Positions 15,817 through 47,699 are shown, numbered from the stretch's first letter. The stretch is 64,000 bases of DNA from an uncultured Alphaproteobacteria bacterium (GCA_944391685.1 CALXUM010000003.1:9481-73480), one strand, 5' to 3'. The notes: generated from the sequence alone by a model not told the origin. A program made the numbers and translations.

Positions 15817-18366
15817 CTATTCTATATCAGTATCTTTGAGTGAATCGGTGTAAAATTTGGAAAAATTGTTGAAATCTTGAACATCATGAACGATACCGTT
15901 GATTTCTTTGATGTCAACTTTATCTTTTTCCAGGTGGTTGGTCAAGATATTGAAAGGACCATGATATTTGGTATTGGCAAAATAGGGCATAAATTTATTG
16001 CGTATTCTTACCAATACGGTTTCTCTTCCGGCTTTTTTAAGAACCGTTGCCCAATCTAAAATATAGTTTATTTGCTCTTGTGATAAGGGTTGTCCAGGTT
16101 TGGGATTTTCAATAAGATATTTAATGGTATCGGCAGCTTTACTCCACTGTTCGGCATTCCAGTACATTTCGAATCTTAGTAAAAGAGCGTTTTTACTATT
16201 ATCTTGTTCAAGAAGCTGTAAAGCTTCGTCGGTTTTACCAATTTGAGACAAAGCTCTGGCTTTGATTATTTTGCGTGGCCCCATAGTTGCCAAACTCAAG
16301 TTATCATATTCTGTCCTGTCTAATATATCCAATGCATTACGAGGACTCTGGTCAAAAAGATTGATTACGGCAAGTCGTGCTCCAATTCTGGCACGGTTTT
16401 CATCGGTTAGATCATTTTTTAACAGAAGTTCGTTTAAAAGTTCTGATGCCCGCGGCAGTAAATCTACTGCAACCAAGCGATCGGCAAGTTTTTGAATTAT
16501 GGTATTTTGACGAGAACTTAATTCACTCAGCCATTTAAAGTCATTATAAAGAGCTAACGATTTTATGGGAATCATTTTAGTATCATCTTGATTATATATA
16601 TAGATATCTTCAAAGATTTTTACCATGCGATTAGTTATGTTTTGCTTCTGTTCAGGTGTAGCAATTTGTAAATTTTCCTGAAGGGTTTTAAGAGCTTGGT
16701 AATAATTAGAATCTTTTAGATATAATCCTGCCAAGGAATTTAAAAGTTTATATTTAAATTCCGTTTCACTCCAAGCAAAACGTAATCTTTCAAGTTCTGA
16801 TATGGCATCTTTTATTTTCATACTGCCAATGCGTTGGCTTAAAACTGCATTTTCATAACGAGAAAGTGCTGAAAACTTTTGGTCATCGCTTTGAGAAATA
16901 TTGCGGTATTCTTTAATGGCGTTACGAGGGTATCCTTGCAACTCTAATTTTTTTGCGTAAAGATAGTTTATTTGAGGATCAAGATTTTTATTTCTGGATG
17001 ATACCGATCTTAGAATATCTATAAAATTTTGGGTTGCCAAATCATCATTTGAATCTAAAGCGTTTTGAGTTGCTATGATTGCTACTTGATCTTTAATTTC
17101 TTGAGGGTAATCTCTGATGAGAGATATATTTGAAAATAAAATTTTATTGTTTCGTTCGTTGAATTTGTATGCACTTTGAGCTAAAGTACGCCAAAAGATA
17201 CCCTCATTCATAGAAGGTATGTTGCCTTGATTAAAATCTTCTTCTGCTTCTTGATATCTTTGAGTTAAAAAGTTAGCAATACCACGCATGGCATGAAAAT
17301 TATCGGTTTGGGCTTCAGGAATGTTGGCATCTTTCATTTGATTCAGAATGTATAGAGCGTTAGTTCCAAGACCATGATATAGATAGTATCTGGCAAGATT
17401 AAGCCGGATTTGGTTTTTTTGGCTTTGCGGAGCGTCAAGAATATCTTGTCTGATAGTATCTATGGCTTCAACAAAGCTCATTTCTTGCAAATTTTGAGGA
17501 ATTTGCAAATTAAAAGCAGGGGTTTCTTTTTTATCGTCTTGAAATTTTTGTCGTTTTTTTAAAGATGACAGATCTCCGGTTATGCTTAATCCACGGTTAG
17601 GGGCTTTAAGAGTTAATCCTGAATTACCTCGGCTAAGCATTATATCTGGAGCGTCTATTACAAAAGCCAAGCCTTGTTGAGTTTTTAAGATATCAAATTC
17701 AGGGTAACGGTAAGGATCAGTTGTCCCTTGCCCGACAGATGATAAGGGAGCAATAGTTATCATATCACCAATATCCGGATCTATGATGCCGATTATATTT
17801 CCGGCACGATCAGTCGGAATAAATAAATAAGGTTGCTTCATGCCATCATATTGAGTAAAGATGGTCATGTTTTTGATTTGTTGTGGGGGATAATGATCAG
17901 TAAACAAATCAAGAATCCAAAGCAAACCTTCTTTACGAACGGAAAAATTAACTCCTTCTGTCGGCCGTATTCTTAAGATTGTGGCCATGGGATGGGGAAG
18001 CTGAATTATGCTTTTGGCTAAGTTGCCGGCACTATTCTTGAGTTCTTCAATGTTTACTTTTTGTGGTTTGTCAAATGCAAGCCATATGTTCCCGTTTCGT
18101 TCAAAAGCAGCCATATTTACAGGATGAGACCATGAAAAGCTAAGGCTGGATATTTGCGGTTTTTGTTCTGTCGATGGAGCAGCTACAAAAAGTCGATTGT
18201 TAACGGTTTGCTTGGTCCCAACGGTTATCCTTTCTGATTTTGCTGGTTGGGGGAGGTCTTGAATAATTATGTCTTGAGCCTGAATAAGTTTTTGGGGAAG
18301 TAAAAGGCTTCCTATGAAAATTAGTATAAATATGTATCTTCTCAGGTTTAACAACTTACTTCTCAA
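15817..18366 (-). CDS. exported 849-aa protein: beta-rich N-terminal half plus TPR-like helical-repeat C-terminal half, in the flagellar operon
   Basis: Signal-peptide-like N-terminus (...[11 protein letters not shown]). The C-terminal roughly 500 aa has repeated A/Y/L-rich helical-pair patterns ([33 protein letters not shown]...). Only 1 nt from the MotE-like gene upstream and 2 nt from uvrB downstream. Confidence 0.65.
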
Positions 18367-19022: not shown

Positions 19023-19487
19023 TTATTTGATTGAACGCAATGCTTTTAATAATTCTAATTCAGCTTCCGATCTTGTGTCTTTTACGTTTGTTGAAAACCC
19101 TTCTTTAGTTTGAGCTGTATTTGAAGTTTTGTTTTCTATATTACGTGAATTACTGATGACATTTTCGAGTCTGTCTGCTAAGTTATCTGCTCTTTCATTT
19201 ATAAAGAGTAAATCATCTTTAAGCTCTTTGGCACTGTCAACTACTTCTTTTAAGCCTTCGGAAGAGTGTTCAGTTACGGATTTTAGTTTTGGTATACTGT
19301 TTTCAGCTTTAAATGTTGCTTCATTTAAGGCTTGAATTAGTTGAGCCAGAGAATTTTGGTTTTGTCTCAGAGCTTTTAAATTGTTGTTTAGACGATAAGC
19401 ATATATAATGGTCGGAATCAACAAGGCAATAATTATTATATTTATTATAAGTTCAAGATTATACATCTTTTTCGGCCTTTCCATCAA
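19023..19487 (-). CDS. membrane-anchored coiled-coil protein of the flagellar cluster
   Basis: TM helix LELIINIIIIALLIPTIIYAY followed by a coiled coil, sitting between fliM and the motE-like gene. The start may be the internal MYNLE (19466). Confidence 0.5.
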   Translation of the reverse strand: MMERPKKMYNLELIINIIIIALLIPTIIYAYRLNNNLKALRQNQNSLAQLIQALNEATFKAENSIPKLKSVTEHSSEGLKEVVDSAKELKDDLLFINERADNLADRLENVISNSRNIENKTSNTAQTKEGFSTNVKDTRSEAELELLKALRSIK

Positions 19488-20499
19488 CTCTTATAACAAT
19501 ATGACTATCTTTACGCCCCATGGAACCTTTAAGTAAAGGAACATCTCCGCAAACTATGCTAATTTGTTCAGTGGGAGGTATATCAAGCGGAAGGAAGGAA
19601 CCTTTTTCCCAGGTAGAAATTTCTCCAAGCTTAATGTTTGTTTCTTTAAGAACGGCCTTAATCTCAACATCAGTTTCCCAAAGTTGAGACATAAGGTGAT
19701 TTTCCCAAATGGTATCGCGACCAAAACGTTCTCCCATGAACATTTGTAAAAGTAATTCTCTTACCGGTTCTAAAGTAGCATAAGGAATCATAAGATCTAT
19801 TTTACCTCCGCGATCTTCCATATCAATTCTTAAGTGGGCAACAATAACAGCATTTGACAGTCTGGAGATGGTGGCAAAACGAGGGTTGGTTTCAAGTCTG
19901 TCAAAAGCAAAACTAACAGAAGTGATAGGATCAAAAGCGGTTGATAAATCACTTAAAATAAGCTGAATCATTTCTTTGACTATATTGAGCTCTATTGTAG
20001 TATAAGGACGACCTTCAATACGCATGGCCGCAGTGCCACGACGACCTCCTAAAAGGACGTCTACCATAGAATAAATCAGAGAACTATCAAGAGACATTAG
20101 CCCATAGTTGTCCCATTCTTCAGCTTTAAAAACATTGAGAAGAGTAGGCAAGGTGAGTGAATCTATATATTCGCCAAAACGCATTGATTCTATGCTGTCA
20201 AGAGATACTTCAACGTTATCTTGAGTATAATTACGCAAGGATGTCGCCATTAAACGAATTAAGCGGTCAAAAACAATTTCAAGCATGGGTAAGCGTTCAT
20301 AAGAAACCATGCTGGAATTTAATATAGCTCTAAACCCTGTTTTGTCTGATGCATAATCAATATCATCATTGTTAGAATAGCCTAAAAGGCTATCAATTTC
20401 TTCCTGATTTAAAATTTTAGAATCAGGGCTATCGGAGTTTACCGTGTTATTATCTTCAATTATAGAATCTGTTTCTTTTATATTTGTTTCTTCTGCCAC
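19459..20499 (-). CDS. fliM: flagellar motor switch protein FliM
   Basis: N-terminal CheY-P-binding-type motif LNQEEIDSLLG, central FliM domain (LLGGRRG...), C-terminal SpoA-like domain. 346 aa, follows fliL. Confidence 0.85.
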   Translation of the reverse strand: MAEETNIKETDSIIEDNNTVNSDSPDSKILNQEEIDSLLGYSNNDDIDYASDKTGFRAILNSSMVSYERLPMLEIVFDRLIRLMATSLRNYTQDNVEVSLDSIESMRFGEYIDSLTLPTLLNVFKAEEWDNYGLMSLDSSLIYSMVDVLLGGRRGTAAMRIEGRPYTTIELNIVKEMIQLILSDLSTAFDPITSVSFAFDRLETNPRFATISRLSNAVIVAHLRIDMEDRGGKIDLMIPYATLEPVRELLLQMFMGERFGRDTIWENHLMSQLWETDVEIKAVLKETNIKLGEISTWEKGSFLPLDIPPTEQISIVCGDVPLLKGSMGRKDSHIVIRVDGKAEKDV

Positions 20500-20517: not shown

Positions 20518-21042
20518 TTACTGAATTTCAAAAGTTGTAAAGTTAAGGTTATTAACTTTAAGCGGTGCGACGATTAAATTTATACGGTATAAAAGTTCTT
20601 GCTTTAGCCAATAAAGACCAGAGCTTCCAGATATTTCTTCGGGTGTTAGCTCTATAGTGTGAGCTATAATAGCATCTTTAATTTTAGGAGAAAGTATTTC
20701 TATTGTTTTGGTGTCTTCAATGCCCGAAAGTTCAATATTTAGCTTTATTTTGACTGTTTTTTTGACAGAATCCTTACTATTTAAAACTGAAGTTATTTCA
20801 GGAAGATCATAAAAAACAGTTGTTTTTTCCGATTTAGTACCATCTTGTTCAACTATGTTAGTTAAAACGCTGTAGTTGTTTGGAGCAGAAGTATAACTAC
20901 GGTTAAAAACATAGTAAAAGCCTACCGATAAACCAATCACGATTAAAACCGGAATTATGATAAATAACATTTTTTTACGGTTTTTGCGATTTTGTTCTTC
21001 GGAAACATCTTCTTTGTCCAAGTCATCTTCTTGGTCAATCAT
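20518..21042 (-). CDS. fliL: flagellar basal-body-associated protein FliL
   Basis: Acidic N-terminus, single TM (LFIIIPVLIVIGLSVGFYYVF), C-terminal FliL-type region ending VNNLNFTTFEIQ. Confidence 0.75.
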   Translation of the reverse strand: MIDQEDDLDKEDVSEEQNRKNRKKMLFIIIPVLIVIGLSVGFYYVFNRSYTSAPNNYSVLTNIVEQDGTKSEKTTVFYDLPEITSVLNSKDSVKKTVKIKLNIELSGIEDTKTIEILSPKIKDAIIAHTIELTPEEISGSSGLYWLKQELLYRINLIVAPLKVNNLNFTTFEIQ

Positions 21043-21299
21043 TAAAAATTCCCTCCAAAAATACTGCGAATATTTAACTTATTTTATAACATTATTTTTA
21101 TAAATAAATGCAAATTTATTAGTTATTAAATGTTTAATTTAATATAAGGCATAAATTATTATCAAATGTTAAATTTTTAGTCTATTTTGGGTATTGTTGC
21201 AGATTTGTTAAATTATTAAAATTTATCGTTGATTTAATAGATTAGAAACTTTTTTTGTGTTATTATAAAATATATTTAACGACATTAAGGTTTTGCAAA

Positions 21300-21980
21300 A
21301 TGTATATTTGGGTTGTGTTGGCAACATTTTTGGCAATTTTGGCCTCTTACACTCTTTCACCACGGACTGATTATAGAAAGCTGGCTGTAGAACCTGTGGC
21401 AGAGGCTCAGGTGGCAAAATTGGTTACTAAACACAATGCGGCATTTGAATATGTTAAATTTCGCAAACATCCTTATACTTCAGGTCGCGGAGACATTAAT
21501 TATGATACAGGGATTATTCCTGATGATGAGATTACGCCTTATTTGCCTTATGGGCATTATAATGATGAAAACTTTATAAGTCAGATATTTTGTATGGATG
21601 AATTTATGGAAGTGGCTTATGATAGTGTAGGTAGTGCAGACAATCCTTGTGCAGACAGAAATAATAAAAAAAGATTAATTACTTATGGTCCTATTCCGGA
21701 GAGATGGCTTAATCAAATGTCTGGATTAGACAGGCCAAATAATGATTACATGAATGCTGTTCGTAATACTGTGGATGAGGGAGAAATGCTTGGTTATACG
21801 GCTAATGGCGATAGTACAATAACTAAGGAAAATCCTTCAGGTTCGGCAGTGATGATAATGGATAGGATGGGAAGTGCAATGTATTATATTCCAAAGGCTA
21901 TAGTTAATGATGCAGATTTTAAAAATGTTTGTGATTTAACGAAAAATAAAGTTTGTTTGGTTTATATGAGCGGAATATAA
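21300..21980 (+). CDS. membrane-anchored hypothetical protein (226 aa)
   Basis: Start set at ATG 21300 (AAGG 9 nt upstream). N-terminal hydrophobic helix MYIWVVLATFLAILASY, then a Cys-containing soluble domain. Its stop lies 1 nt before the next ORF. Confidence 0.5.
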   Translation: MYIWVVLATFLAILASYTLSPRTDYRKLAVEPVAEAQVAKLVTKHNAAFEYVKFRKHPYTSGRGDINYDTGIIPDDEITPYLPYGHYNDENFISQIFCMDEFMEVAYDSVGSADNPCADRNNKKRLITYGPIPERWLNQMSGLDRPNNDYMNAVRNTVDEGEMLGYTANGDSTITKENPSGSAVMIMDRMGSAMYYIPKAIVNDADFKNVCDLTKNKVCLVYMSGI

Positions 21981-22002
21981 AATGCTTTTTAGGAGAAAAG
22001 CC

Positions 22003-25000
22003 ATGATAAAAAAGGTTGAAAGTTTGTGGGGACAGAAAGGTAGCATGATGGTGGAAGCTTTGGCTATGCTTGGTCTTATTACTATGGTTACTCCTATTTT
22101 GTATAAAAAGGCGGCTGAAAGAACAACTGAATTGCAAGATATTAATACGGCGGCACAAATGCGTACAATATCAAAGGCTTTAGATGATTATATTCAGGAT
22201 AATTATGCTGAGTTGTCAAGTGATGCCGAGGGTGAATATGTTACGGTGATGACACCTCAAGAAATTGAGGATAAATTGTTGCCATATTTGCCATATAATT
22301 TTAAGTTACAATCACGTTTTTATGATGATTATAAAGTTGCTTATCGTAATGATGTACAAAATTTGGGTTCAGCAGCTGAGCCTAAAATTCATTCAGCTAT
22401 TACCGGTATGATTTTAGCTGATTCAAAAGAAGGAATGCCAATGGTCAGAGCTGCAAAAATTGCATCAATGATTGGAGCAAACGGTGGCGTGGTTAAAGAT
22501 AAGAAAATTTCAGGTGTACAGGGTGCTTGGGAAGCAGATCTTGGAGATTATGATTTTGCAGAAGATATAAAAGACGGTAGTTTGGCTGTTAGTTCTGTTC
22601 ATGCAATTGCATCAGAAGGTGGAGGGGCCAGCTCTGCTCACGTTTTATATCGTGATGACAGTAAAGGTGATGAAGAATATAATCGTATGCAGGTTGATTT
22701 ATTGATGAACGGAAATAATATCAGAGAAGTTGTTCATTTGTTGGCTTTGCCTGATGCAGATGCTGGTTTGGGTAATATTGCCAACGAAATTATTATTGAT
22801 AGTGATGAAGGTGAGGTTGGAAGCGGAAATGCTATTTTAAGTGTTAAAGGAAAAGCTAATGTTGAAGATTTGTTTGCTGCAGGAGCATTAAAAATAGGAG
22901 CTGTAGCTAATCGTGATGTGGCAATGCCGGTATTTAGCGTTGATAATGATAGTATTGATGCCAGCAAAAAAGTTATAATTAACACAGGGGCAGCAACAAA
23001 TTCTGCTTTGGAAGTTACGGGAACATCAACCTTAACAGGAGATGCAACAGTTACCGGAAAAGCTAAAGTAACTAGTGGTACAGCTACATTTGACGTTGGA
23101 TCTACTACGGCAAATACGGTTACGGTTAATGCTCCGACTAATATTACCGGAGAAACCTCAATAAGTGGTCAAACAACGGTTAAAGGAACTGCAACAACGG
23201 TATCAGGGGTTGATGGAGATACTGATAAATATATTTTATCAACGGAAGGAAATTTGCTTGTAAGCAATAATGCCAGAGTTAAAGGCAAGTTGACTGTGGA
23301 AACATTGGAAACAACTAATCTTCATGCAACAGGATATGTTTATGCTGATGATAATTTAAAAGCCGGGTTTGATGGTAATAATTATAATTTAAAAGTTGAT
23401 GCAGAGGGAACATCTTTACGGAAAAATAATTTTACGGTAGGACAGCGTATTGTAGCTAATGATAGTTCAGTTGCATTATATGGCGGTACAGATACGGCTA
23501 AAGGAATTTATAAATTATATGCGGATAATAGTTATGCCGGAATTGGTGATTTTAGTGGTTCGACCAACATTACAAACGGATTTACCGCTTTAGCTGGAGC
23601 TGTTTATGGCGTGTCTACAGATAGGGCAAAAATCAGAACTGCTCATGGTATGTTTTTTTCTGATAAAGATAAAACAGTTGTTTCTAAGGGAATATATGAA
23701 GACGGGGTTTCTAATAATCAATATTTATTTATGAATGACGGCAGTGTTCAATTAGGAAATAATGTTAATTCCGTTAAGCAAGCAATTACTTTAAATAGTA
23801 CCGGAGTTACACTTGATTCTGGAAATAATGCTAAAGCTGTGATAGGTGGTGGTGAAGCTATTATTACAGCAGATAATTTACAATTAAAAAGTAATAGTAC
23901 GGCAAGCAGTAATCCAACAATTTTTGAGGTTAATGAAAATCAGCTAGCTTATGGAAGCAGTGTGGCGGATTTGACTGTCAGTAATGATGTTCGCAGTGAA
24001 GGGGTTATTATCAGGCGTGACGGAATGATTCAATTACCAAGAGCTACAAAAAATGTCGATGATAATACAATAGGAAATATGGATACAGTAGGGTATATTC
24101 GAGCAGATAGAGTACTTTCTAATGTTGATTATGTTGATCCTTCAGCTTATCCTAATGGTGAATATTATAATTATAGAGGAAGTTCTATTACTCCTTATGA
24201 TGCTTATCAGGTTAATCCGGCTTATACGTCGGTGATGCATGATATTAAATTAACAACTCGCGGTGGTGCTCGTTTGAGTGATATTTTGCCAGACTTTATT
24301 AATAAAGGTATTTATGTGATTGATAATACTTATAAAGAGGATGGTAAAGATTGGAGTACAGATTCAGCTTATAGTGTTACTGTTGTTGAAAATGGCGAAA
24401 TAAAGGTTAATACCAAGGAGAGTGAAACTTGTCCGTCCACAGATGCCAGATGTATCGCATCTCCGTGGATGGGGTTTGTACCGACACCACAGTGTCCTCC
24501 AGGATATTCAAAAGTTATTACCATTAATCCTATTCGATGGAAAATGTCAGAAGCTTTTGTAGTGACTGGAAATGACCTTTCAGGTATAACTGATGCGGCA
24601 ACTAAATTCAGATATTATTTCGATGTACCGACTGATCCGGGAAATTCTAAATTCCAATTAAATAGTGTTACAGGAAATACTTCTCATACTCATACAGTAT
24701 CATCAGGTACACCATTAACATTTCAAACTAATACTTGGTTGAATACTACTATTGATGGGGTTAGAGGAGGAAGTTCGACAGGAACTGGAGCCGGACGTTA
24801 TGGAGATTTTTATGGTTGGCATGCAATTATGGGTTTCTTATACTATGCTGATGAGTATATGGCTTATTTAAGCAATGTTGGAGCTGATGTCTCAGCTTTG
24901 GGTGGTAAAGTCGTTTGGAATTTGTTTCCTGTTTATAATGAGGAAATGACAGCAATTGCTGATGTATATTGTTATTTTGAACGAAGAGATATGTCAAGCT

Positions 25001-25146
25001 CTCCTGTTTGGGGGTGGAAGAGAGAAATGGTTCATAATTATGATCAAGTGAAAAATTTCAGAAGTGGCTTTAATAAATCAAGCCAAGATGGTGGTTATGT
25101 CGATCGTTTGAATGATCCGGCGTTGAAATATAATGATCCTTGGTAA
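22003..25146 (+). CDS. giant (about 1047 aa) protein with a prepilin / TadE-like N-terminus
   Basis: AGGAG 7 nt before ATG 22003. Short basic leader MIKKVESLWGQKG, then SMMVEALAMLGLITMVTPILY (Gly at -1, Glu at +5, hydrophobic helix) = class-III signal-peptide logic. T/G/V-rich repeat tract (TGTSTLTGDATVTGKAKVTSGTATFDVGSTTANTVTVNAPTNITGETSISGQTTVKG). Cys-containing C-terminal domain. Confidence 0.65.
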   Translation: MIKKVESLWGQKGSMMVEALAMLGLITMVTPILYKKAAERTTELQDINTAAQMRTISKALDDYIQDNYAELSSDAEGEYVTVMTPQEIEDKLLPYLPYNFKLQSRFYDDYKVAYRNDVQNLGSAAEPKIHSAITGMILADSKEGMPMVRAAKIASMIGANGGVVKDKKISGVQGAWEADLGDYDFAEDIKDGSLAVSSVHAIASEGGGASSAHVLYRDDSKGDEEYNRMQVDLLMNGNNIREVVHLLALPDADAGLGNIANEIIIDSDEGEVGSGNAILSVKGKANVEDLFAAGALKIGAVANRDVAMPVFSVDNDSIDASKKVIINTGAATNSALEVTGTSTLTGDATVTGKAKVTSGTATFDVGSTTANTVTVNAPTNITGETSISGQTTVKGTATTVSGVDGDTDKYILSTEGNLLVSNNARVKGKLTVETLETTNLHATGYVYADDNLKAGFDGNNYNLKVDAEGTSLRKNNFTVGQRIVANDSSVALYGGTDTAKGIYKLYADNSYAGIGDFSGSTNITNGFTALAGAVYGVSTDRAKIRTAHGMFFSDKDKTVVSKGIYEDGVSNNQYLFMNDGSVQLGNNVNSVKQAITLNSTGVTLDSGNNAKAVIGGGEAIITADNLQLKSNSTASSNPTIFEVNENQLAYGSSVADLTVSNDVRSEGVIIRRDGMIQLPRATKNVDDNTIGNMDTVGYIRADRVLSNVDYVDPSAYPNGEYYNYRGSSITPYDAYQVNPAYTSVMHDIKLTTRGGARLSDILPDFINKGIYVIDNTYKEDGKDWSTDSAYSVTVVENGEIKVNTKESETCPSTDARCIASPWMGFVPTPQCPPGYSKVITINPIRWKMSEAFVVTGNDLSGITDAATKFRYYFDVPTDPGNSKFQLNSVTGNTSHTHTVSSGTPLTFQTNTWLNTTIDGVRGGSSTGTGAGRYGDFYGWHAIMGFLYYADEYMAYLSNVGADVSALGGKVVWNLFPVYNEEMTAIADVYCYFERRDMSSSPVWGWKREMVHNYDQVKNFRSGFNKSSQDGGYVDRLNDPALKYNDPW

Positions 25147-25151
25147 TAAGA

Positions 25152-25177
25152 AGCCCCGTATGAAACGGGGCTTTTTC
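25152..25177. terminator. bidirectional hairpin terminator between convergent genes
   Basis: AGCCCCGT / ACGGGGCT stem followed by TTTTT. Confidence 0.6.
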
Positions 25178-25921
25178 TTATTGAAAGCTGTTAACCAATG
25201 ATCCGGCAAGCAGGTACCAACCGTCTACAAGTACAAAAAATATTACCTTAAAGGGAAGTGCCAAAACCGTAGGCGGTAGCATCATCATACCCATGGACAT
25301 TAATACTGAAGCAATAACCATATCAATAATCAAAAATGGAACAAATATTAAAAATCCGATTTCAAAAGCACGACGCAGCTCACTGATCATGAATGCCGGA
25401 ATAGCAATTTTAAGCGGAGTTTCTGCAACTGTTTGAGCTGGTTTTTCTTTAGCCAAATCAGTAAAAAGCAAAAGATCTTTTTCTCTAGTGTTGTTAACCA
25501 TAAATTCTTTAATAGGGATGGAAGCTTTTTCAAGTCCGTCCATAACTTCAATCTTCTCATCCATCATTGGTTTGAGACCTTGTTCCCACGATTTCTCAAG
25601 AGTGGGGCTCATGATAAATAGAGTTAAAAACAAGGCTAAAGAAACCAGAACCATGTTGGGAGGAGTTGAGTTGGTAGCCAAAGCACTGCGGGTTATGGAA
25701 AAGACAACGATTATTCTGGTAAACGATGTCATCATTACTAAGATTGACGGAGCTAGTGATAAAACCGTAATCATCATCAAAACACTGAAGATGCGTGCCG
25801 TAGCAGAGCCTGTCGGAGCATCTCCGAGATTTAGACTGACACTTTGAGCCAGAGCAAATTCTGTTTGCGTTAGTGTTAAAAGAATAGCTAATCCTAAAAG
25901 CCAAAACAATCTTTTATTCAT
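25178..25921 (-). CDS. fliP: flagellar type III export apparatus protein FliP
   Basis: Start moved to MNKRLFWLLG (signal sequence). MMTSFTRIIVVFS, MVLVSLALFLTLFIMSP, FMISELRRAFEIGFLIFVPFLIIDMVIASVLMSMGMMMLPP motifs. Confidence 0.9.
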   Translation of the reverse strand: MNKRLFWLLGLAILLTLTQTEFALAQSVSLNLGDAPTGSATARIFSVLMMITVLSLAPSILVMMTSFTRIIVVFSITRSALATNSTPPNMVLVSLALFLTLFIMSPTLEKSWEQGLKPMMDEKIEVMDGLEKASIPIKEFMVNNTREKDLLLFTDLAKEKPAQTVAETPLKIAIPAFMISELRRAFEIGFLIFVPFLIIDMVIASVLMSMGMMMLPPTVLALPFKVIFFVLVDGWYLLAGSLVNSFQ

Positions 25922-26210
25922 CTGATTTTTGTCCTTGAGAAATTGGTTTGCTTTCGAGGATAGAAACACAAGAATTGCCCAGCAAAACCAAATGTTCGGT
26001 GTTGTCACATTTTAGCAAAACAAGGGAATTTCTGGCATCAATACGGCGAATTTCAACAACATCTAGTCTTTGAGATGATTTTAAGCGGCGAACCAAAATT
26101 GATTTACCTCCTTTTTGTTCGCAGTATTTGAAAAACCACAGAGTAAGCAGCAAAAGTCCGATTACAAAAATAAGCGATAAGACAGCTTGTAAAATTTGAT
26201 GCCATTCCAT
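25914..26210 (-). CDS. fliO: flagellar biosynthesis protein FliO-like
   Basis: 98 aa, single N-terminal TM (AVLSLIFVIGLLLLTLWFF), then RLDVVEIRRIDARNSLVLLKCDNTEHLVLLG. Overlaps the fliP start by 8 nt. Confidence 0.6.
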   Translation of the reverse strand: MEWHQILQAVLSLIFVIGLLLLTLWFFKYCEQKGGKSILVRRLKSSQRLDVVEIRRIDARNSLVLLKCDNTEHLVLLGNSCVSILESKPISQGQKSDE

Positions 26211-27561: not shown

Positions 27562-27615
27562 AAATTATTTGGGACTATATTTTTAATAACTGCTTAACAT
27601 TTTATAATGTAGAGT

Positions 27616-31025: not shown

Positions 31026-31751
31026 TTACATTTTGAGGTTGATGTTATTCCAGCCGCTTTTTTTGGTGTTTTGTTCCGGCTGTTGTTCTTTGAGCCAGTT
31101 GCGGACGGGTTCGTTTTTTTGTTGCAGGAGTTGTTTTTGCTCTTCGGTTTGGGCAACGCCAATCGGCAAAAGCTGGTTAAGCAAAGCCGGAGAGGCAAAA
31201 TCAACTTTGCCTTTAATCAAAGGTTCGGTCAAAGCATCAATAATTTGGGCGGCAGGTTTGGCGTTAAACGCGGTAACTTTGCCGCCGTAAAAAATAGCAA
31301 AAGCATGGCACGGAGACGAGAACAAAACATCGGTAGAATCAACCCCGCGAACAAAACGAAGCATAATTTTTGGGCGAATGACGCAATTTTCGGTTTGATC
31401 AAGCAAAACATTGTTGGGGTTCATGAACATTTCAGAAACGACCATGGTTTTGAGCTCATTATTAATAACGCCGCAAAAACCGACAATTGCCATGCCGTCC
31501 AGCGTATAGCCGGTATAGTTATCCGGTTTGTTGGCAATTTGGTAGCAAAAAACCTGTTCGGCATCAGTAATGTTGGCAGTGGCGGAATCACCGATTGCGG
31601 AGCTGATACCTTCAAGAACGGTATTATAAGCCGGGTTTGGCTGCCAGGCAGGTATTGCTTCAGTTGCTGTTGTGGTTTTTTGCTGGGCAAGAGCCGAAAA
31701 ACTCAAAGAAAGGCAAAAAGCCAAAGTTGCCAAAGATGTTGTTTTCATCAA
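31026..31751 (-). CDS. secreted hypothetical protein (241 aa)
   Basis: Clear signal peptide MMKTTSLATLAFCLSLSFSALAQQ and codon usage like the core genes. The overlapping plus-strand ORF 31002-31835 is Phe/Leu/Arg-rich nonsense. Confidence 0.6.
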   Translation of the reverse strand: MMKTTSLATLAFCLSLSFSALAQQKTTTATEAIPAWQPNPAYNTVLEGISSAIGDSATANITDAEQVFCYQIANKPDNYTGYTLDGMAIVGFCGVINNELKTMVVSEMFMNPNNVLLDQTENCVIRPKIMLRFVRGVDSTDVLFSSPCHAFAIFYGGKVTAFNAKPAAQIIDALTEPLIKGKVDFASPALLNQLLPIGVAQTEEQKQLLQQKNEPVRNWLKEQQPEQNTKKSGWNNINLKM

Positions 31752-32783: not shown

Positions 32784-33455
32784 CTAAAACCTCCACTGGA
32801 AACCAATCTTTGCCTGAAGGGCAAATTTGTTTTTTTCCAATGGGATGGTGCCATTGCTGATGACAGCTTCGGCACCGTCGACGTCAACCTGACCGGCAGC
32901 GTCGATAATTTTACCCTCAAAGAAGCGGTACATACATTGTACCCCTGCATTGAGGGAAAGTTTTTTGTCCAAACGAAACTCAAAGTTGAGCTTCGCTCCT
33001 ATTTGCGGGCGCATTTTATACGTCGCTAAATAGGAATTGATATCGCCGGTGATGTTGTCACCTTTGATATCAACTTGGGTGGCTGAACCCATGAGCTGTT
33101 CTCCTAGACCGGCAAAAGCGCCGATCTGAGGTACGAACCAACTGCGTGGGTTTCGCACGAGGTCTCTTTTATAAAATACATGGAGACTGGACCGGTTCTC
33201 CATGTAATAACCTTCAATTCCGTAATGGTTGCCCTTACGGAAGAAGGTGAAGGATAAGCCTCCGCCAGCTTTTCCGTCCATGATATCATAGACGGCAAAA
33301 GCCTCCCCGAGGAAGCAGCGATCGCCGTACAACATTTTCCAATTCTGGTCATCGTTGTAAGACGATGCGTCGTTGTTGGAAGTTTGTGCGGTGGCGTTTA
33401 TGGTGGCTGCAACCAGCAGGATGATCATGGTTGCGAAATACTTCATACTTTTCAT
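32784..33455 (-). CDS. outer-membrane beta-barrel protein with a Bacteroidota-style signal peptide
   Basis: MKSMKYFATMIILLVAATINATAQ, alternating strands, terminal GFQWRF. NNC-rich codon usage and no SD before either candidate ATG (33455 / 33446). Confidence 0.6.
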   Translation of the reverse strand: MKSMKYFATMIILLVAATINATAQTSNNDASSYNDDQNWKMLYGDRCFLGEAFAVYDIMDGKAGGGLSFTFFRKGNHYGIEGYYMENRSSLHVFYKRDLVRNPRSWFVPQIGAFAGLGEQLMGSATQVDIKGDNITGDINSYLATYKMRPQIGAKLNFEFRLDKKLSLNAGVQCMYRFFEGKIIDAAGQVDVDGAEAVISNGTIPLEKNKFALQAKIGFQWRF

Positions 33456-33589
33456 AGTCTGTTTGGCGGTATTAAACCTTTCCGAGGAAAGGACCATTCT
33501 GTTGCCAGGTAGAATGATTTTTATTTTAGCTTCGGTGGTCGGGTTAAAGTTTTTAAGACCACCGAAGCTGAATTAGACACTTGAATTAA

Positions 33590-35617
33590 TTACTTGAGCT
33601 CGAGAGTTTTGCCGTTGCCCAAGTTGAAGGTTGTCGTCCCTTTGGTGCTGTTTACAGTACCGTAGGAACGAACGGGGTTGCGGAGACTCTGCGATACAGA
33701 AGATACAACAGATACGGTAGAGTAGAAGTTCTCGTTGGTGAGAGACGTCCACATATACTCAGTATCGTTGGTCTGCACGTATGCAGGAGCTGTTCCTTCG
33801 CCGCTACGGTAAACACGTCCCAACGGGAAGTTGGGGATGTTTACACCATTCAGAGCCTCGCGGCTCTTTTCTGTTCCGCTGTTTTCGTCAAATTCAACGA
33901 ACAACATTTGGGTATCGTCGTTGTCTTTAACAAAAATGGCGTATATGGGGCTCGCTACCCATTTATCCCTGCTTTCAGTGTAGTAATCACACTGGTTTGC
34001 TTTCAATAAATGATAGCCAGGGATTGTGGGGTTCACAGGTTTTTCTACCTGTGTGCGAACCAGCTGGGTAGCAGTAGCCGCATCGACTCCTTCAACCGAG
34101 ACAATGTAGCTAATCTCATAGTCGGTGAAAGTGTATTTTTCATCACTACCAGACGATTTATTAACACCATCCATGCGAACAGACGGGTTAATCTGGTAGG
34201 TGTCAGTTACACCTTCTTCCTCAAGAATCACTTCTTGAGGATAATCCAAAGTTACCACGTTGTTGAAAAGATTCCACGCGAAGGTGTACTCTTTTCCATT
34301 TACTGACGGATTGTTGCTCAAAAGAGACAATTCTTCCGTCGTTGTGAATACTTTGGGTTCCTGGGCTTTGGCAGAGATGGTTACTGCTTTGAACCCAGGT
34401 TTCCGACTGTTTAATTCAGTATTTACAGAATGTTCAGTTACGAAATCATAAAGGATTCCGAATTGACCATTCTTAGTACCGGGGCGTTTGTTTTCAAACC
34501 ATTTGTTGATTTTATCAACAATGGCTTTCACCCTGGTACTGTAATACTGAGTTGCTTCAGCCACTTCTACACCGTTGACCATCATATTGTAGTTGATGGT
34601 GTAGTCGGTGTAGTTGTATCCGTCTTCTTCGGACGGGGTATTGCTCATACCAATCATTCTCACCACGGGGGTAAGTTTGATTGTTTTTTGAGCTTTTCCC
34701 TTCTGAAGGGTAACCTCAGCGGGACAGTAACCGGTTAAGGTGTTGTCCGTGAGGTTGTAATTGAAAACGAACTCGTTTCCGTCAACAGAAGGCTCTGTTG
34801 ACAGAAGAGAAAGGATTTCTTCTGTATCGAAAACCCTTTTTGCCTCAGCTTGGAGAGCAAAAGGAATTTCATACAGAAGTCGAGTTCTGCTGTTGAGCTC
34901 AGTATTCACTGAGTGTTCAACAACATAGTCGAAATATATCCCTTCCTTTGTTATTTGTTCGTTTTCAATCCGCTCGGTGATTTCGTCGTCTTCCGACGTT
35001 TCGACCACCGTAAGAGTAAGGTCCCAGCTTACCTGCTCATCTTCGCCACAAGACATGGTGAAAACGATAGTTGCAGGTATCTGGAACTTTTTCGTTTCCA
35101 GCTCTTTGGCATCGCCAAGGATGAGCTCAGATTTAGCTACCGTACAGTAGCTGAGCTCGTCTTTCCCAAAAGTCTGGTTGCCCAGACGAATTTGGGAAAC
35201 CAAAGTTTCACCAAAGATCATTGAGAGGAAGCTTTCACCAATGGCAAAAACTCCGTTCTCCCAGACGTAAGTCTGGTTGATGATTTTGGTGATATCTTCG
35301 GTGGCGATAGACGTGTTACCAATAGTGGCACTATTGGTAACATTATAGTCTCGGTCGTAGGTGTCGTCACCTAAGTTGGCTCTAAAATGAGCGACGTGAT
35401 CACAGGGGATCGTGATCACGTTCTCGTTGACTGATAACTCAGACATTGAGATATGCTCCGAAGAGAGCAGTTCGTAGGTGGTGCCTACGGGGTTGTTGTT
35501 CTCATCGACGTCAATACCTCCCCATACTCCTGCATCGTCCTTAGAGCAAGAAGTAAAAACGACTGCCATAGCAGCGAGCATCAATGCTACGATGGCTTTG
35601 AAATTTGTCTTTTCCAT
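33590..35617 (-). CDS. large lipoprotein (675 aa) with a Bacteroidota-type lipobox and surface-export signal
   Basis: MEKTNFKAIVALMLAAMAVVFTSCSKDDAG (FTSC lipobox; C-S-K-D-D). Two roughly 135-aa internal repeats. Codons AAC/TAC/GAG/CTC dominate. No SD (AAAAAACATACAATT-ATG). Confidence 0.7.
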   Translation of the reverse strand: MEKTNFKAIVALMLAAMAVVFTSCSKDDAGVWGGIDVDENNNPVGTTYELLSSEHISMSELSVNENVITIPCDHVAHFRANLGDDTYDRDYNVTNSATIGNTSIATEDITKIINQTYVWENGVFAIGESFLSMIFGETLVSQIRLGNQTFGKDELSYCTVAKSELILGDAKELETKKFQIPATIVFTMSCGEDEQVSWDLTLTVVETSEDDEITERIENEQITKEGIYFDYVVEHSVNTELNSRTRLLYEIPFALQAEAKRVFDTEEILSLLSTEPSVDGNEFVFNYNLTDNTLTGYCPAEVTLQKGKAQKTIKLTPVVRMIGMSNTPSEEDGYNYTDYTINYNMMVNGVEVAEATQYYSTRVKAIVDKINKWFENKRPGTKNGQFGILYDFVTEHSVNTELNSRKPGFKAVTISAKAQEPKVFTTTEELSLLSNNPSVNGKEYTFAWNLFNNVVTLDYPQEVILEEEGVTDTYQINPSVRMDGVNKSSGSDEKYTFTDYEISYIVSVEGVDAATATQLVRTQVEKPVNPTIPGYHLLKANQCDYYTESRDKWVASPIYAIFVKDNDDTQMLFVEFDENSGTEKSREALNGVNIPNFPLGRVYRSGEGTAPAYVQTNDTEYMWTSLTNENFYSTVSVVSSVSQSLRNPVRSYGTVNSTKGTTTFNLGNGKTLELK

Positions 35618-36335
35618 AATTGTATGTTTTTTATGATTATTATTCAAAAAAAACACATACTATGAATATCCCGCTTCCCTTCAATAAAATTCAAATGTCT
35701 AACTTTCATCCTCAACAAGAACGTTATCTTGTTACAGATTATGAAAATTTGTCGATTCAAATAATACTGAAAAAAATAGAATAAAGATAATATGTGTGCA
35801 ATTTTAGTTATAGCATAAAACACTGAAAAAGACAAGAAAAAAAGCTTTTTGAGCTGTTTTAAAGTAGGGGTGTTAAGCAAAAATTTACTTTTGACTCGGA
35901 ATGTTAATTTTGCGAAAATAGCCAAAAATAAGATTTTATCGGGATTCGGCGATGGAATCGGCAAAGAAACAGGAATCTTCCGCCAAAAAGCAAAAAGATG
36001 TTTTTGTCTAGTGAGAGAGGCAAAAAGTGAGCAACCGGGAGTCGGGGAGAGCTAAAAAAAAGACTGAGGCGAGTCTTGTCGGGGCGAGTCTTTAAAAAAG
36101 TTTGGGAAGACAGAGTCGCCGGCTTAAAAATTGTCAGAGGGTAGCGGAGAAGAGCCAAAGATGTGTATAAATGTTTGTATGAACGAAAGGTTTTGATTTT
36201 TTTGCTTGTAGAATCGTTTTTGTTAGTATAACTTAGCTGCGAATAAAGTTCGTCATGCGGGCTTGTTTCCGCGTGGCTTCGTTTTAACAACAATGGCCTT
36301 TTTCTAAGGTCACATCTTAAGGAGATGATTTTACC

Positions 36336-39162: not shown

Positions 39163-39681
39163 TTGGCAAATACTATTATTTATAAACAATTAAAATTTTT
39201 TGATATGAATTTGAAGGAAGTTAAAGACTTTTATCAAAGTTTAACAGAGGTAAAAGAAGAAATTAAGGAGTTTTCATCGGTTGCCGTTTGTGAGCTTGAC
39301 GGCGGAATTAAGGAATGGAAGCACTGTAAGGAGAGTATTTATGTTTTTCTGGAGAAGCAGGAAGAATTTGTACTGAAATATTTTGCAAGAAATTTTCCTA
39401 CATCATTTGAAAGTGCTTTGAAAATTCCGGATTTTGACTTTGACAATTTCGCAAAATTGCTTTTGCTGCAAAAGCAATTAATTTGTGGCAATGAGAAAAA
39501 ATTATTTAGCTTGGTTAAGGATATTTTGAATTATCCTCCGTGTGAAAAAATTAAAATCGGGAAAGATTTTTTTAGTCTTTTGGAAGAAGAGCCTATAAAA
39601 GTTTGTATTGGTGAGGATGAAAAAACTTTTTTGATTGGTAAATTGTCTAACTATTGCAGTCAGAAAAAAACAGGTGTTTAA
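39163..39681 (+). CDS. hypothetical protein, AT-rich
   Basis: Uninterrupted ORF with its own terminator. TTG start in the track, or possibly ATG at 39205. No recognised motif. Confidence 0.45.
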   Translation: MANTIIYKQLKFFDMNLKEVKDFYQSLTEVKEEIKEFSSVAVCELDGGIKEWKHCKESIYVFLEKQEEFVLKYFARNFPTSFESALKIPDFDFDNFAKLLLLQKQLICGNEKKLFSLVKDILNYPPCEKIKIGKDFFSLLEEEPIKVCIGEDEKTFLIGKLSNYCSQKKTGV

Positions 39682-39698
39682 AAGAACACCTGTTTTTT
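39670..39698 (+). terminator. rho-independent terminator (stop codon inside the loop)
   Basis: ACAGGTGTT / AACACCTGT followed by TTTTTT. Confidence 0.6.
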
Positions 39699-39781
39699 GA
39701 TAATAAGTGTTGACAAAATTGTACAAAATAGGTATGAAATTGATATTAAAAATAATTATTAACAAATTAAAAATTTTAATT

Positions 39782-40492
39782 ATGTATTCAGAGATTGAAA
39801 ATTTTTATGGAAACAAACCCATAAAAAGAAAAGTTAAAAATTTCATTAAGGTGCAGGATTTTTTGGAATCTAAAAAGTTCCAGATGTTCTGTGATTTGGA
39901 AGAAGACAACCTTCAGCGTTATCCCGTAATGCAAATTACCGTTTGCTCAGAGAATGAGGTTTATGAAGTCGGAAATTTTGATGAAATTGAAGATTTTCGC
40001 ATCAACATATTACCGGAGGAAGGGGCAAGACTTTATAAAGCGGTAAGATTTATTAATCGTCCGACGGTTAGTGACGAAAAAGCCATATATTATGCCATGA
40101 GTTATTATGTGCATAAAGAAGAAGAAAAATGGTCGGCGGAGCTGATATTGGATGATGAGTCTTGGCTTGACAGAAAGAAAGTTACTGCTGCTTTCAATAT
40201 GCTAGCTAAGAAAAACGATTACGCCAATCTCGGCAACACTGAGATGAAGGAAATTTGCCTACATCTTAATGGACGAGTGCCTTTTTCGACCAAGGCCTGG
40301 GTTAAAAGAGTTTCTTTACCCAAAAATATGGATCGGTATTTGCTCTGTTTGATGGATAATGGCAGGGTTCTGGATTTGCCGGTTGAGATGGTGGGTATAG
40401 AAAAAATAGATATTCCATCCTCAGGGTATTTGAGAACCAAATTTAATTGGTTCCAATATCTTGGGGAAGGAATTTTCTCAAGAGTAAAATAA
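39782..40492 (+). CDS. hypothetical protein, AT-rich
   Basis: Start set at MYSEIENFYG, because the upstream part of the track ORF overlaps the preceding terminator. No recognised motif. Confidence 0.5.
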   Translation: MYSEIENFYGNKPIKRKVKNFIKVQDFLESKKFQMFCDLEEDNLQRYPVMQITVCSENEVYEVGNFDEIEDFRINILPEEGARLYKAVRFINRPTVSDEKAIYYAMSYYVHKEEEKWSAELILDDESWLDRKKVTAAFNMLAKKNDYANLGNTEMKEICLHLNGRVPFSTKAWVKRVSLPKNMDRYLLCLMDNGRVLDLPVEMVGIEKIDIPSSGYLRTKFNWFQYLGEGIFSRVK

Positions 40493-43904: not shown

Positions 43905-44876
43905 ATGTTTACTGACTACAAATCACCGCTGGGCTATGTAGCCGATGGTAAAAAGATAGACACCTATGGCGTTGACCATAGCGGATTTTCAACAAAAGAC
44001 GAGATAGAATATCAAATGGCTCGGCAAAAAAGAGAAAACAGTTTGATAAAAGGTTATAATAACCAAGGAATAACTAAAGATTACCCGCAATATGGCACTA
44101 ACTTTTGGGGCAAAGCTGATAATAACTATGGTTTTGGCAACTCAAATATTGCCGATAATATCAAAAACAAACAAAACCAAGACATAAGTTCTGCATTATA
44201 CCCAAACCAAATAGGAAATGATGCCGCAAGTTATAAATTGGCTCAGAATAATCAAGCTAATACGGTGAGTGATGCAAATGGGCAAACGCTAACAAAATAT
44301 CAAAAATTAATAGATAAACATTATAATGATATCTATAAAAATGAAGGAAATCCTGATTATGTTTATCTTGATCCTAAATATATAAGAACAATCGGGCGAG
44401 GAACAAATATTAACAATCCTAATGCGTTTAATCAAGTTAACTATAAAATAAAAAATACAAATGATTTTGCAAGTGAAAAAGAAAAGCAAGATTGTTATGA
44501 TAAATTTGAAGACTGGATTAAAAATAATAAAAGACACTCCAAAGATAAACATAATTTTAAAGCGAATTATTTTGAGGATTTTTGTAATTTGTATATAGAT
44601 CCAAATGAAGCAAAACGATTACATAATGAACATGTTGTAAAAGATATTCCTGTCATAAAAAATATAATAAAAAATTATGATGAATTAAGTTATGAAAAAC
44701 AGTTGGCAATTTTAGATATGGTTTATAATCTTGGTGCTACAGAATTTAAAAACCAATTTACAAAATTTATTGAAGCTGCAAATGCTAATTCAGAAGAAGG
44801 AATGTTAAAAGAATATCATCGAAAGGGTATTTCTGAAGACAGAAATAAATGGACAGCAGATTTATTAAAAAAATAA
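43905..44876 (+). CDS. polymorphic-toxin-like protein: conserved N-terminal module + T4-lysozyme (GH24)-like C-terminal domain
   Basis: AAGGAG SD. The N-terminal roughly 115 aa are repeated in three downstream cassettes. C-terminus: NEGNPDYVYLDPKYIRTIGRG reproduces the T4 lysozyme E-x8-D-x5-T catalytic spacing and TIG(I/R)G, and ILDMVYNLGATEFKNQFTKFIEA resembles the T4L helix [22 protein letters not shown]. Confidence 0.75.
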   Translation: MFTDYKSPLGYVADGKKIDTYGVDHSGFSTKDEIEYQMARQKRENSLIKGYNNQGITKDYPQYGTNFWGKADNNYGFGNSNIADNIKNKQNQDISSALYPNQIGNDAASYKLAQNNQANTVSDANGQTLTKYQKLIDKHYNDIYKNEGNPDYVYLDPKYIRTIGRGTNINNPNAFNQVNYKIKNTNDFASEKEKQDCYDKFEDWIKNNKRHSKDKHNFKANYFEDFCNLYIDPNEAKRLHNEHVVKDIPVIKNIIKNYDELSYEKQLAILDMVYNLGATEFKNQFTKFIEAANANSEEGMLKEYHRKGISEDRNKWTADLLKK

Positions 44877-47008: not shown

Positions 47009-47699
47009 AAAGACGAGATAGAATATCAAATGGCTCGGCAAAAAAGAGAAAACAGTTTGATAGAAGGTTATAATAACCAGGGAATAACTAAAGACTATCC
47101 TTTAATCAGGCACTAACTTCTGGGGAAATCCCGACAATAACTACGGTTTCGGCAGCTCAAACATTGCCGATAATGTTAAGAATAAACAAAGATTTAAATT
47201 ACAACAAGTAAATACTATTGATTCAAAAATAGAAAATTCACGACAGCAAATTAATAATTATTTGATCCCGCAGGAAGCGTATAAAAATGCAACTTGGGGA
47301 GATAAGACAGCTCAACAGCTTAATAATTATATGCAAGCTTATGATTCATATCCTGGAGTAACAAACACTGGGGTTTTAGCTCCTTTTAATGATTTTATAA
47401 GAAATTATGAAGATATGGAAAAAAATGCATTGATTGGTTCAGATAATTTCTTTCATTGTAAAGCAAATTATGAAGCGGCTAAAAGAGGTGCTTGGGGAGA
47501 ATTGGTAGGAAAAGGAATGAGTGCGGCAAGAGAATTGTACGGTTTGGCAAAGGGAGAGCCTTTTTCGGATGTAAGGAAAGATTGGCACGCCAATCAAAGG
47601 GGATGGAACGGAGCTAAACAAGGACTATCCTTGGAGCAAGCTTGTCCAACTGATCCTAAGGAATATGTTGAAATAAAAGATTATGAAGATGTTTTTTAA
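47009..47699 (+). pseudogene. orphan toxin cassette, frameshifted: conserved module fragment + serum-amyloid-A-like C-terminal domain
   Basis: KDEIEYQMARQKRENSLIEGYNNQGITKDYP runs into a stop at 47114-47116. A +1 shift near 47100-47111 continues as TNFWGNPDNNYGFGSSNIADNVKNKQ..., in frame with track ORF 47262-47699. C-terminus IGSDNFFHCKANYEAAKRGAWGE...SAARE...D..ANQRGWNGAK aligns by eye with vertebrate SAA ([22 protein letters not shown]...SDARE...D..[9 protein letters not shown]). Confidence 0.6.

Follow-up and report, generated by a model that had tools for sequence, protein, structure and literature searches.

A stretch of 64,000 nucleotides from an uncultured Alphaproteobacteria bacterium (GCA_944391685.1 CALXUM010000003.1:9481-73480; hereafter the window), which is low-GC DNA (~36%) of a gut alphaproteobacterium, carries between the flagellar genes fliL and fliP a gene for a protein of 1047 residues, here called the giant, preceded by a gene for a smaller protein, here called its partner. 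Judged by its sequence relatives, the giant is a PilV-family type IVb minor pilin and not a Tad or type II secretion system (T2SS) pseudopilin; it is a much enlarged and rearranged variant of the PilV-type pilin, widespread in an uncultured gut clade. We suggest, as a reasonably likely reading, that it is a modular minor pilin of a type IVb pilus and is displayed at the pilus tip as an adhesin. PilV itself serves the type IVb thin pilus of IncI plasmids, which is based on PilS, as its minor pilin and adhesin (PMC5430464, PMC9045228).

The evidence that carries this assignment lies in the N-terminal module. When the first 245 residues were scanned alone, Pfam PF04917 (Shufflon_N) matched residues 48-243 at E 9.2e-10 and 38.9 bits (cut-off 27.5), and 9 of 22 homologues match as well. 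Alignment by hhalign with Citrobacter PilV gave a probability of 99.1% and E 4.7e-19 over residues 19-242, and tblastn of 72,556 plasmids matched 825 records; among the matches listed, 89-98% of the query was covered, each under a gene annotated as a PilV tip adhesin. The giant and PilV have the blocks YLPxGF, KIAxxIGAxGG and LYR..G...NTMxTxLxMGGN in common. Together, the PF04917, plasmid and hhalign matches place the giant with the type IVb minor pilins. Among homologues the module (13-240) keeps a mean pairwise identity of 55%, and the AlphaFold2 (AF2) model of the giant shows a helix over 12-66 followed by beta-strands, with a predicted local distance difference test score (pLDDT) of 80-90 over 41-200. 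Full-length Pfam and NCBIfam scans of the giant and the partner returned nothing significant. PF04917 was left unreported by hmmscan of the full 1047 residues and was carried as a precomputed hit by the homologue P0068; significant domain matches can be hidden in long, compositionally biased proteins.

At its N-terminus the giant reads MIKKVESLWGQKG↓SMMVEALAMLGLITMVTPILY (the arrow marks the predicted cleavage site), that is, a hydrophilic leader, Gly and about 20 hydrophobic residues with Glu at +5, the class III signal that had been claimed in the original prediction. Comparison with relatives agrees with this reading. The leaders of homologues differ in sequence and in length (7-26 aa) and always end in Gly; in 59 aligned homologues, G13 and E18 are invariant, and mean pairwise identity is 34% over leader residues 1-12 and 94% over residues 13-48. 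The variable basic leader is thus followed by an almost invariant G↓SMMVEALAMLGLITMVTP segment, and after the Gly the relatives read (S/G/T)(M/L)(M/L)(V/I)E-A-L-A-M-L-G-L-I-T-M-V-T-P-x-L-Y-K-K-A-A-E-R-T-T-E-L-Q-D-I-N. Because the leader stands at 34% and the segment behind it at 94%, while the middle of the protein reaches only 24%, the prepilin motif is not a chance match. A variable leader, invariant Gly-1 and Glu+5 and a near-frozen helix form the pattern expected of a cleaved prepilin, in which alpha-1 would be held nearly constant because it must fit the peptidase, the platform protein and the neighbouring subunits. The G↓(S/G/T)xxxE signature persists in the wider family; among the full-length members listed, the exceptions are a few with truncated or aberrant N-termini. 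The +1 residue is Ser/Gly/Thr, not Phe/Met, and Ser, Gly or Thr in this place is common in type IVb and IVc substrates.

TadE/TadF/TadG proteins and T2SS pseudopilins had also been named in connection with this signal, and these family labels are not supported. Neither TadE (PF07811) nor Tad-N (PF13400) matched the giant at E<=1, N_methyl (PF07963/TIGR02532) had no match at E<=1 with the full giant or with 22 N-terminal modules, and the only T2SS signal was sub-threshold, GspG TIGR01710 at E 0.006-0.08 in 4 of 22 members. The proposal of a giant minor pilin of the tip-adhesin type therefore keeps its footing in 240 N-terminal residues homologous to PilV, but not the TadE/T2SS labels attached to it. 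That the giant should after all be a Tad (TadE/TadF/TadG-like) or T2SS (GspK-like) pseudopilin is most improbable. The weak GspG matches would favour such an origin, as would the Ser/Gly/Thr at +1 and the Glu+5 of Flp/Tad-type substrates, which the giant has too, and the commonness of Tad systems in Alphaproteobacteria; against these stand not only the missing Tad and N_methyl matches but also a whole 225-residue module that is PilV at 99% and co-resident major pilins of the PilS/bundlin type rather than the Flp type.

Conservation and the AF2 segments divide the giant into three parts, a pilin module (14-240), a stalk (241-670) and a head (671-1047), which is the architecture of a modular pilin as defined by Raynaud et al. 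2021, and they agree with the long T/G/V-rich beta tract and the Cys-containing C-terminal domain of the original prediction. The middle region ranges from 338 to 469 aa among homologues. AF2 stacks beta-hairpins in 450-670 and has low confidence over 279-445, and it may be conjectured that this failure would fit an obligate oligomeric fibre; the likenesses of the stalk in profile and Foldseek searches are weak ones, to bactofilin and to beta-helices of phage spikes and fibres. The head has a mean identity of 53%, rising to 89% within residues 733-780, with C810/C817/C831/C990 and W1047 invariant and several near-invariant blocks. Profile searches found no Pfam relative and no PDB sequence relative of the head, and no meaningful PDB match came up with a profile of the entire family, of the N-terminal module or of the partner either. 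A head profile searched against 1.84 billion representative proteins returned 410 matches, 216 of them at E<=1e-30; in the best 150 of the 410 the domain is C-terminal in proteins of 874-1471 aa or lies in shorter, fragment-like records, and as the search was filled by family members, distant relatives are not visible in it. The head is presumed to be a binding module.

What such a module might bind is a point on which the kinship to PilV itself offers an answer. All characterised PilV proteins stabilise mating pairs by binding the recipient surface (PMC9045228, PMC5297154), and given the strong homology the giant might be the adhesin of a conjugative type IVb pilus, chromosomal or borne on an integrative and conjugative element, which binds recipient bacteria for DNA transfer or cell-cell attachment, and not a host. 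We hold this to be quite unlikely. There is no inverted-repeat family in or after the giant gene and no recombinase among its neighbours, and the C-terminus is constant, so that the head, unlike one under a shufflon, is not switchable; neither the pair nor the type IVb clusters examined have a shufflon, a recombinase, a relaxase or a type IV secretion gene near them. Rather than at the end of a pilI-V operon in a conjugative element, the pair lies among flagellar or housekeeping neighbours in all loci, kept vertically in core chromosomal synteny in 282 species.

In a search of 5.8 billion proteins, 277 relatives of the giant were found, about 950-1100 aa long and all unnamed or 'hypothetical'. 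The nearest public relative, at 76% identity, is in the metagenome-assembled genome 'uncultured Alphaproteobacteria bacterium BRZ_CT__bin33'. The family occurs in 282 species-level genomes and forms at least 216 clusters at 50% identity, and the record titles of the genomes include CAG:495, 'Candidatus Scatocola' and 'uncultured Azospirillum sp.'; searches of the literature turned up no paper that describes it.

The giant and its partner are a fixed two-gene unit, the partner lying directly upstream in 71 of 73 evaluable loci. The partner starts with a leaderless hydrophobic helix (MYIWVVLATFLA) that has Val at position 5 and no Glu5; MYIWVVLATF is found in all listed partner homologues, at the very N-terminus in all but one. 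Its AF2 model (pLDDT 92.6) has a helix over 2-54, which bears out the single N-terminal helix claimed earlier, and then an alpha/beta domain with a beta-sheet; four Cys (C98/C117/C211/C219) are conserved. When partner residues 40-88 were aligned by hhalign with giant residues 52-102, the probability was 79% and E 1.6e-5, with a common YLPYGF motif, and in this register Met1 of the partner falls within one residue of the predicted mature N-terminus of the giant. With modest confidence, we take the partner to be a leaderless, Glu5-less pilin-like paralogue, weakly related to the pilin module of the giant, and it is probably a pilin-like co-subunit with a periplasmic alpha/beta domain. T2SS tip pseudopilins of the GspK type are likewise without Glu5, as is expected of the first (topmost) subunit of a filament; GspK, however, has a cleavable leader and a different fold, whereas the partner is leaderless and has no detectable homology to it. 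A kinship between the partner and the head of the giant had been suspected from ITYGPIPxRW and ITINPIRW and was rejected (hhalign 0.15%).

A minor pilin needs a pilus to join, and the relatives of the giant point to one. When the fetched loci were scanned for class III signals, two relatives proved to have a gene for a PilS/bundlin-type pilin on the contig that carries the giant (L072:579-1280 and L071:14961-15560). The family of the L072 pilin had 7882 matches in one search and carries precomputed Pfam Bundlin and PilS hits; one member is named 'type 4 pilus major pilin [Alphaproteobacteria bacterium]' by NCBI, and the family profile matches the structures of TcpA, BfpA and S. Typhi PilS. The pilin signal G↓RSMVEMLGVLAII is in register with G↓SMMVEALAMLGLI of the giant, as is the longer stretch NENG↓RSMVEMLGVLAIIGVLS of the L072 pilin with QKG↓SMMVEALAMLGLITMV. 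Genes of this type are scattered singly or in twos and threes among housekeeping genes (L090, L091, L171-L174 and about 60 others of L092-L169), with the first 60 residues nearly invariant; the 7882 matches suggest many dispersed paralogues or alleles per lineage. At several such loci the housekeeping proteins are 85-91% identical to those of giant-bearing contigs.

A scan of metagenome contigs showed the same pilin family inside complete type IVb clusters, whose genes follow the order of the plasmid operons: a TcpQ-like protein, a PilN-type secretin, PilO, a 532-aa coiled-coil protein, a T2SSE ATPase, a T2SSF platform protein, a 191-aa bundlin-like protein, three PilS-type pilins and a second ATPase. 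The example at L149:382-12339 has a leaderless 191-aa bundlin-like protein (L149:8350-8925) and its three pilins in tandem, and further clusters are found in L135, L137, L147-L151, L154, L161, L163 and L167, all gut contigs of 47-53% GC. Among the three species-level versions of the cluster none has a PilV-like gene and none a detectable A24 peptidase; clusters of the L149 type have neither pilV nor a recognisable prepilin peptidase within 10 kb. A cluster without pilV leaves a gap that the giant would fill, and a pilV-less type IVb machine and a PilV-like gene at another place in the chromosome of related bacteria would thus fit together.

Several results weigh against a giant that is built into such a pilus and displayed as an adhesin. 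As the original prediction had said, the window holds no pilus ATPase, secretin or prepilin peptidase, and it holds no platform gene either. Motif scans and tblastn with plasmid PilU, applied to the window, to the loci around giant homologues and to the loci around PilS-type pilins, found no A24 prepilin peptidase in about 2.5 Mb of sampled DNA, type IVb clusters included; a relaxed A24 motif with a transmembrane filter found nothing, and in 80 neighbourhoods of the giant the motifs of T2SSE ATPases and A24 peptidases gave a single match, ClpX. The contigs with complete clusters could not be tied to genomes that carry the giant, and the only link between the assembly of a PilS-type pilin and that of the giant was a same-sample coincidence, BRZ_CI. 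The giant, as said, fails the N_methyl profiles, and no pilin was among the Foldseek matches of its full model, which has a low mean pLDDT of 57.6 and is too uncertain beyond residues 41-200. The profile match that makes the partner pilin-like is 47 columns long, and the partner has no Pfam, PDB or significant Foldseek match, CofB being the top hit at E 0.37. The head, finally, is strongly conserved, and adhesin heads, the C-termini of PilV included, are usually variable.

Much of this would be accounted for if the PilV-like module were a mere inner-membrane anchor and the giant were never polymerised. It would then form a membrane-tethered, envelope-spanning fibre or a short pseudopilus stub, its leader cleaved or not, with the head touching a conserved component of the envelope. 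The 89% identity of residues 733-780 would be easier to understand for a structural contact than for the binding of a host ligand, neither a peptidase nor a machinery gene was found near the pair in 80 genomes, and the invariant transmembrane helices of both proteins suggest a fixed membrane complex. Yet Gly-1 and Glu+5 are kept behind a leader that varies in length and sequence, as is characteristic of proteins that are cleaved and packed into filaments; the same lineages have cognate PilS-type major pilins; and there are type IVb clusters of the same pilin family without a pilV of their own. On balance we judge a mere anchor unlikely.

The position of the pair among flagellar genes, from which a functional tie to the flagellar cluster had been proposed, looks like a matter of gene order. 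Of the 61 species genomes in which the pair is flanked by 3 kb or more on each side, 50 have fliL-fliM next to it (divergent in 46, directly downstream of it on the same strand in 4) and 11 do not. The whole block up to uvrB is as conserved as fliL, a convergent fliP lies within 1.5 kb at just 15 of the 73 loci that have at least 3 kb downstream, and relocated pairs sit among dnaB, rbfA-truB, gap-pgk and similar genes; Pfam and NCBIfam gave no match of the giant or the partner to a flagellar family. Since the uvrB block is equally conserved and the pair can move with its own promoter, we treat the flagellar link as positional: the place beside fliL-fliM looks like inherited gene order and does not point to a flagellar function, and the giant is probably a pilus adhesin of gut Alphaproteobacteria and not a flagellar part.

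The promoter region likewise travels with the pair. At 38 of 51 loci, some of them with the pair away from fliL, a motif TG.TA..[AT]T stands 25-70 nt (mostly 33-54) before the ATG of the partner, so that the pair keeps a promoter region of its own wherever it is located. TTAA-N7-[GT][AT]AAC occurs 63-70 nt before the partner ATG in 24 of 51 loci, compared with about 1 (at most 5) in shuffles, and its half-sites are conserved while the spacer varies. This TTAA-N7-GAAAC box, which we take to resemble the alphaproteobacterial CtrA site, is possibly a binding site for a CtrA-type response regulator. In Caulobacter, CtrA co-regulates flagella and pili, so that the pair and the flagellar genes perhaps share cell-cycle or polar-organelle regulation. 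No sigma-54, sigma-28 or full CtrA box was consistently present in the spacer between fliL and the partner. A full TTAA-N7-TTAAC sequence (TTAATAACTGCTTAAC) at 27583-27598 (+), within the 54 nt that separate the DsbA-like gene from atpI, presumably matches the CtrA-box consensus, and other TTAA-N7-xAAAC sites lie at 29620, 31885 and 34414 (-).

Two stronger versions of a flagellar role can be weighed with these data. One is that the pair is a flagellar accessory, a pilin-derived protein co-opted to the basal body, a periplasmic scaffold or a sheath. The pair lies beside fliL-fliM-DUF6468-MgtE_N-like-849 aa in those 50 of 61 genomes, across which the identity of the giant falls to about 30%; a hook cluster is 7 kb away in L005; and pilin tip complexes in Myxococcus have been reported to be coupled functionally to a type III secretion basal body (PMC12075869). 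The equal synteny of uvrB, the 11 genomes in which the pair stands among housekeeping genes with the same promoter, the rarity of a convergent fliP, and the missing sigma-54 and sigma-28 promoters and flagellar family matches make such an accessory very unlikely. The other, which we consider highly unlikely, has a PilV-derived giant and its leaderless partner that are no pilus subunits but are co-opted into a fixed flagellum-associated envelope structure, for instance a fibre in the periplasm or on the surface, at the pole of the flagellum; this would explain the fliL-fliM synteny, the invariant membrane helices, the conserved head and the peptidase that was not found.

If the giant is a pilus adhesin, as we favour, it would be synthesised as a prepilin and enter the inner membrane, where a prepilin peptidase, its gene lying at another place, would cut off the 13-residue leader behind Gly13. 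The invariant alpha-1 with Glu+5 would let it enter the base of a type IVb pilus which, to go by the relatives, would consist of PilS/bundlin-type major pilins and be built by a PilN-PilO-PilQ-PilR machine from another locus. Minor pilins prime assembly and sit at pilus tips, and their gene clusters may lie away from the machinery (PMC12075869). Incorporated first, like PilV, CofB and TcpB, the giant would end at the tip and there hold out its variable beta-rich stalk and the conserved, presumably disulfide-bonded head of 380 residues, which may bind a conserved ligand on host mucus, epithelium or other cells. The partner, co-transcribed with the giant and starting where the mature giant would start, would most likely pair with it helix to helix and serve as terminal subunit or adaptor of the tip complex, though this step is tentative.

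The coordinates of the pair, its parts and its neighbours are collected in Table 1.

Table 1. The giant gene, its partner and adjoining features; positions are counted from the first nucleotide of the window.
Feature	Position	Strand	Remark
Partner gene	21300-21980	+	226 aa
Giant gene	22003-25146	+	1047 aa
Leader peptide, aa 1-13, MIKKVESLWGQKG	22003-22041	+	ends in invariant Gly-1
PilV-type pilin module, aa 14-240	22042-22722	+	alpha-1 helix with Glu+5, then globular domain
Variable T/G/V-rich, beta-rich stalk, aa 241-670	22723-24012	+	24% mean pairwise identity
C-terminal head, aa 671-1047	24013-25143	+	four invariant Cys, terminal Trp
TTAA-N7-GAAAC box, TTAATAGATTAGAAAC	21234-21249	+	upstream of the pair
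Extended -10 element, TGTTATTAT (TGnTAnnAT)	21258-21266	+	upstream of the partner
fliL	20518-21042	-	divergent from the pair (Pfam)
fliM	19459-20499	-	divergent from the pair (Pfam)
fliP and fliO-like gene	25178-26210	-	convergent with the pair (Pfam)
Hairpin, likely bidirectional intrinsic terminator	25144-25180		between the convergent stops of giant and fliP

The placement of the two reading frames and of their neighbours in the original prediction was correct, Pfam agreeing on the divergent fliL and fliM and the convergent fliO-like gene and fliP. The start of the giant at ATG 22003 follows a Shine-Dalgarno sequence (AGGAG, 7 nt upstream) and is the one used in public gene calls (P0001), where an identical 1047-aa product is recorded. 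The gap of 1 nt that had been given between the two genes holds only for an in-frame upstream ATG at 21982; counted from the ATG that the Shine-Dalgarno sequence precedes, it is 22 nt, and in homologues it is 10-20 nt. Behind the giant, the inverted repeat I12 has arms of 16 nt (25144-25159 and 25165-25180) that are 88% complementary around a 5-nt loop, with a GC-rich core (AGCCCCGT / ACGGGGCT) and a T run after it, and the hairpin likely serves the giant and fliP as a shared terminator.

Upstream, the divergent block comprises fliL, fliM, a DUF6468 protein, an MgtE_N-like protein, an 849-aa protein and uvrB; downstream of the giant, fliP and the fliO-like gene are followed by dciA, a DsbA-like gene and atpI-B-E-F'-F. 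The mechanically called fliP reading frame begins at GTG 26008 and overlaps the fliO-like gene, while the public FliP call of 247 aa starts near 25921 and overlaps the 98-aa fliO-like gene by 8 nt. The 849-aa protein (15817-18366, -), last gene of the fliL-fliM-DUF6468-MgtE_N-like operon, has no Pfam family; some 50 related genomes keep it in this position (with 830-861 aa in L006 and L007), and it is a candidate flagellar accessory protein. Elsewhere in the window, a 145-aa protein (47262-47699, +) matches Pfam PF00277, serum amyloid A (SAA), at E 1.4e-16 and 61 bits (cut-off 30.8) and is by this match a bacterial SAA-like protein. Its gene shares a 30% GC stretch (44-48 kb) with the genes of a GH108 muramidase-like protein (45515-46360) and of a weakly phage-lysozyme-like one (43905-44876). 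Reading frames without a Pfam family lie at 33590-35656 (-), 31026-31751, 32784-33497 and 39163-40492 (688, 241, 237, 172 and 261 aa).

Among characterised pilins, PilV of the IncI1/IncI2 plasmids R64 and TP114 and PilV2 of PAPI-1 come closest to the giant, with homology over about 225 N-terminal residues, a prepilin-type leader and a T/G/V-rich beta region next to the pilin module. At 1047 aa (up to 1471 aa in the family), the giant is nevertheless two to three times longer than PilV (about 430-470 aa). Unlike PilV, it has a canonical Gly-1/Glu+5 signal, a constant C-terminus of 380 aa that is not switched by a shufflon, and no Rci recombinase; it is chromosomal, encoded far from pilS, pilU and the machinery genes, and paired with a leaderless protein of 226 aa.

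CofB, TcpB and LngB are, like the giant, large minor pilins with a pilin module and beta-rich C-terminal domains; they start assembly, form trimers at the tip and have dedicated partners such as CofJ and TcpF (PMC8179133, PMC12075869). The stalk and head of the giant have no detectable sequence kinship to CofB or TcpB, however, and the CofB and TcpB genes lie inside pilus operons and their partners are secreted, whereas the partner of the giant is membrane-anchored and pilin-like. Modular pilins are widespread, and PilB and PilC of S. sanguinis and the beta-solenoid ComZ of Thermus resemble the giant in having modules for display at the tip grafted on an N-terminal pilin module (PMC8179133). 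The grafted modules of the giant, in contrast, match no known domain, and its size exceeds the extreme of 860 residues in that survey (PMC8179133). The Kil (Tad) tip proteins KilL/M/N of Myxococcus recall the pair in being encoded in small clusters away from the machinery, with one large pilin that has a domain of unknown fold, and in the bundle of alpha-1 helices that joins the tip subunits (PMC12075869); these tips are Tad-type heterotrimers in which all subunits have leaders, whereas the pair consists of a leader-bearing and a leaderless protein and belongs to a type IVb context.

The family extends the range of type IV pilins to PilV-type proteins of two to three times the usual size, with a new conserved head, encoded away from the machinery together with a leaderless partner that lacks Glu5. 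As the giant fails the N_methyl/IPR012902 signature that was used in the survey of modular pilins (PMC8179133), the family would have been missed there. More generally, the prepilin signature is blind to it and PF04917 is seen only when the N-terminal module is isolated, so that it will have escaped surveys of modular pilins. Should the partner prove to be a natively leaderless pilin, it would represent a new route by which type IV filaments get their terminal subunit. Uncultured Alphaproteobacteria of the gut are common in humans, ruminants and poultry, and the giant family provides a concrete candidate adhesin for them.

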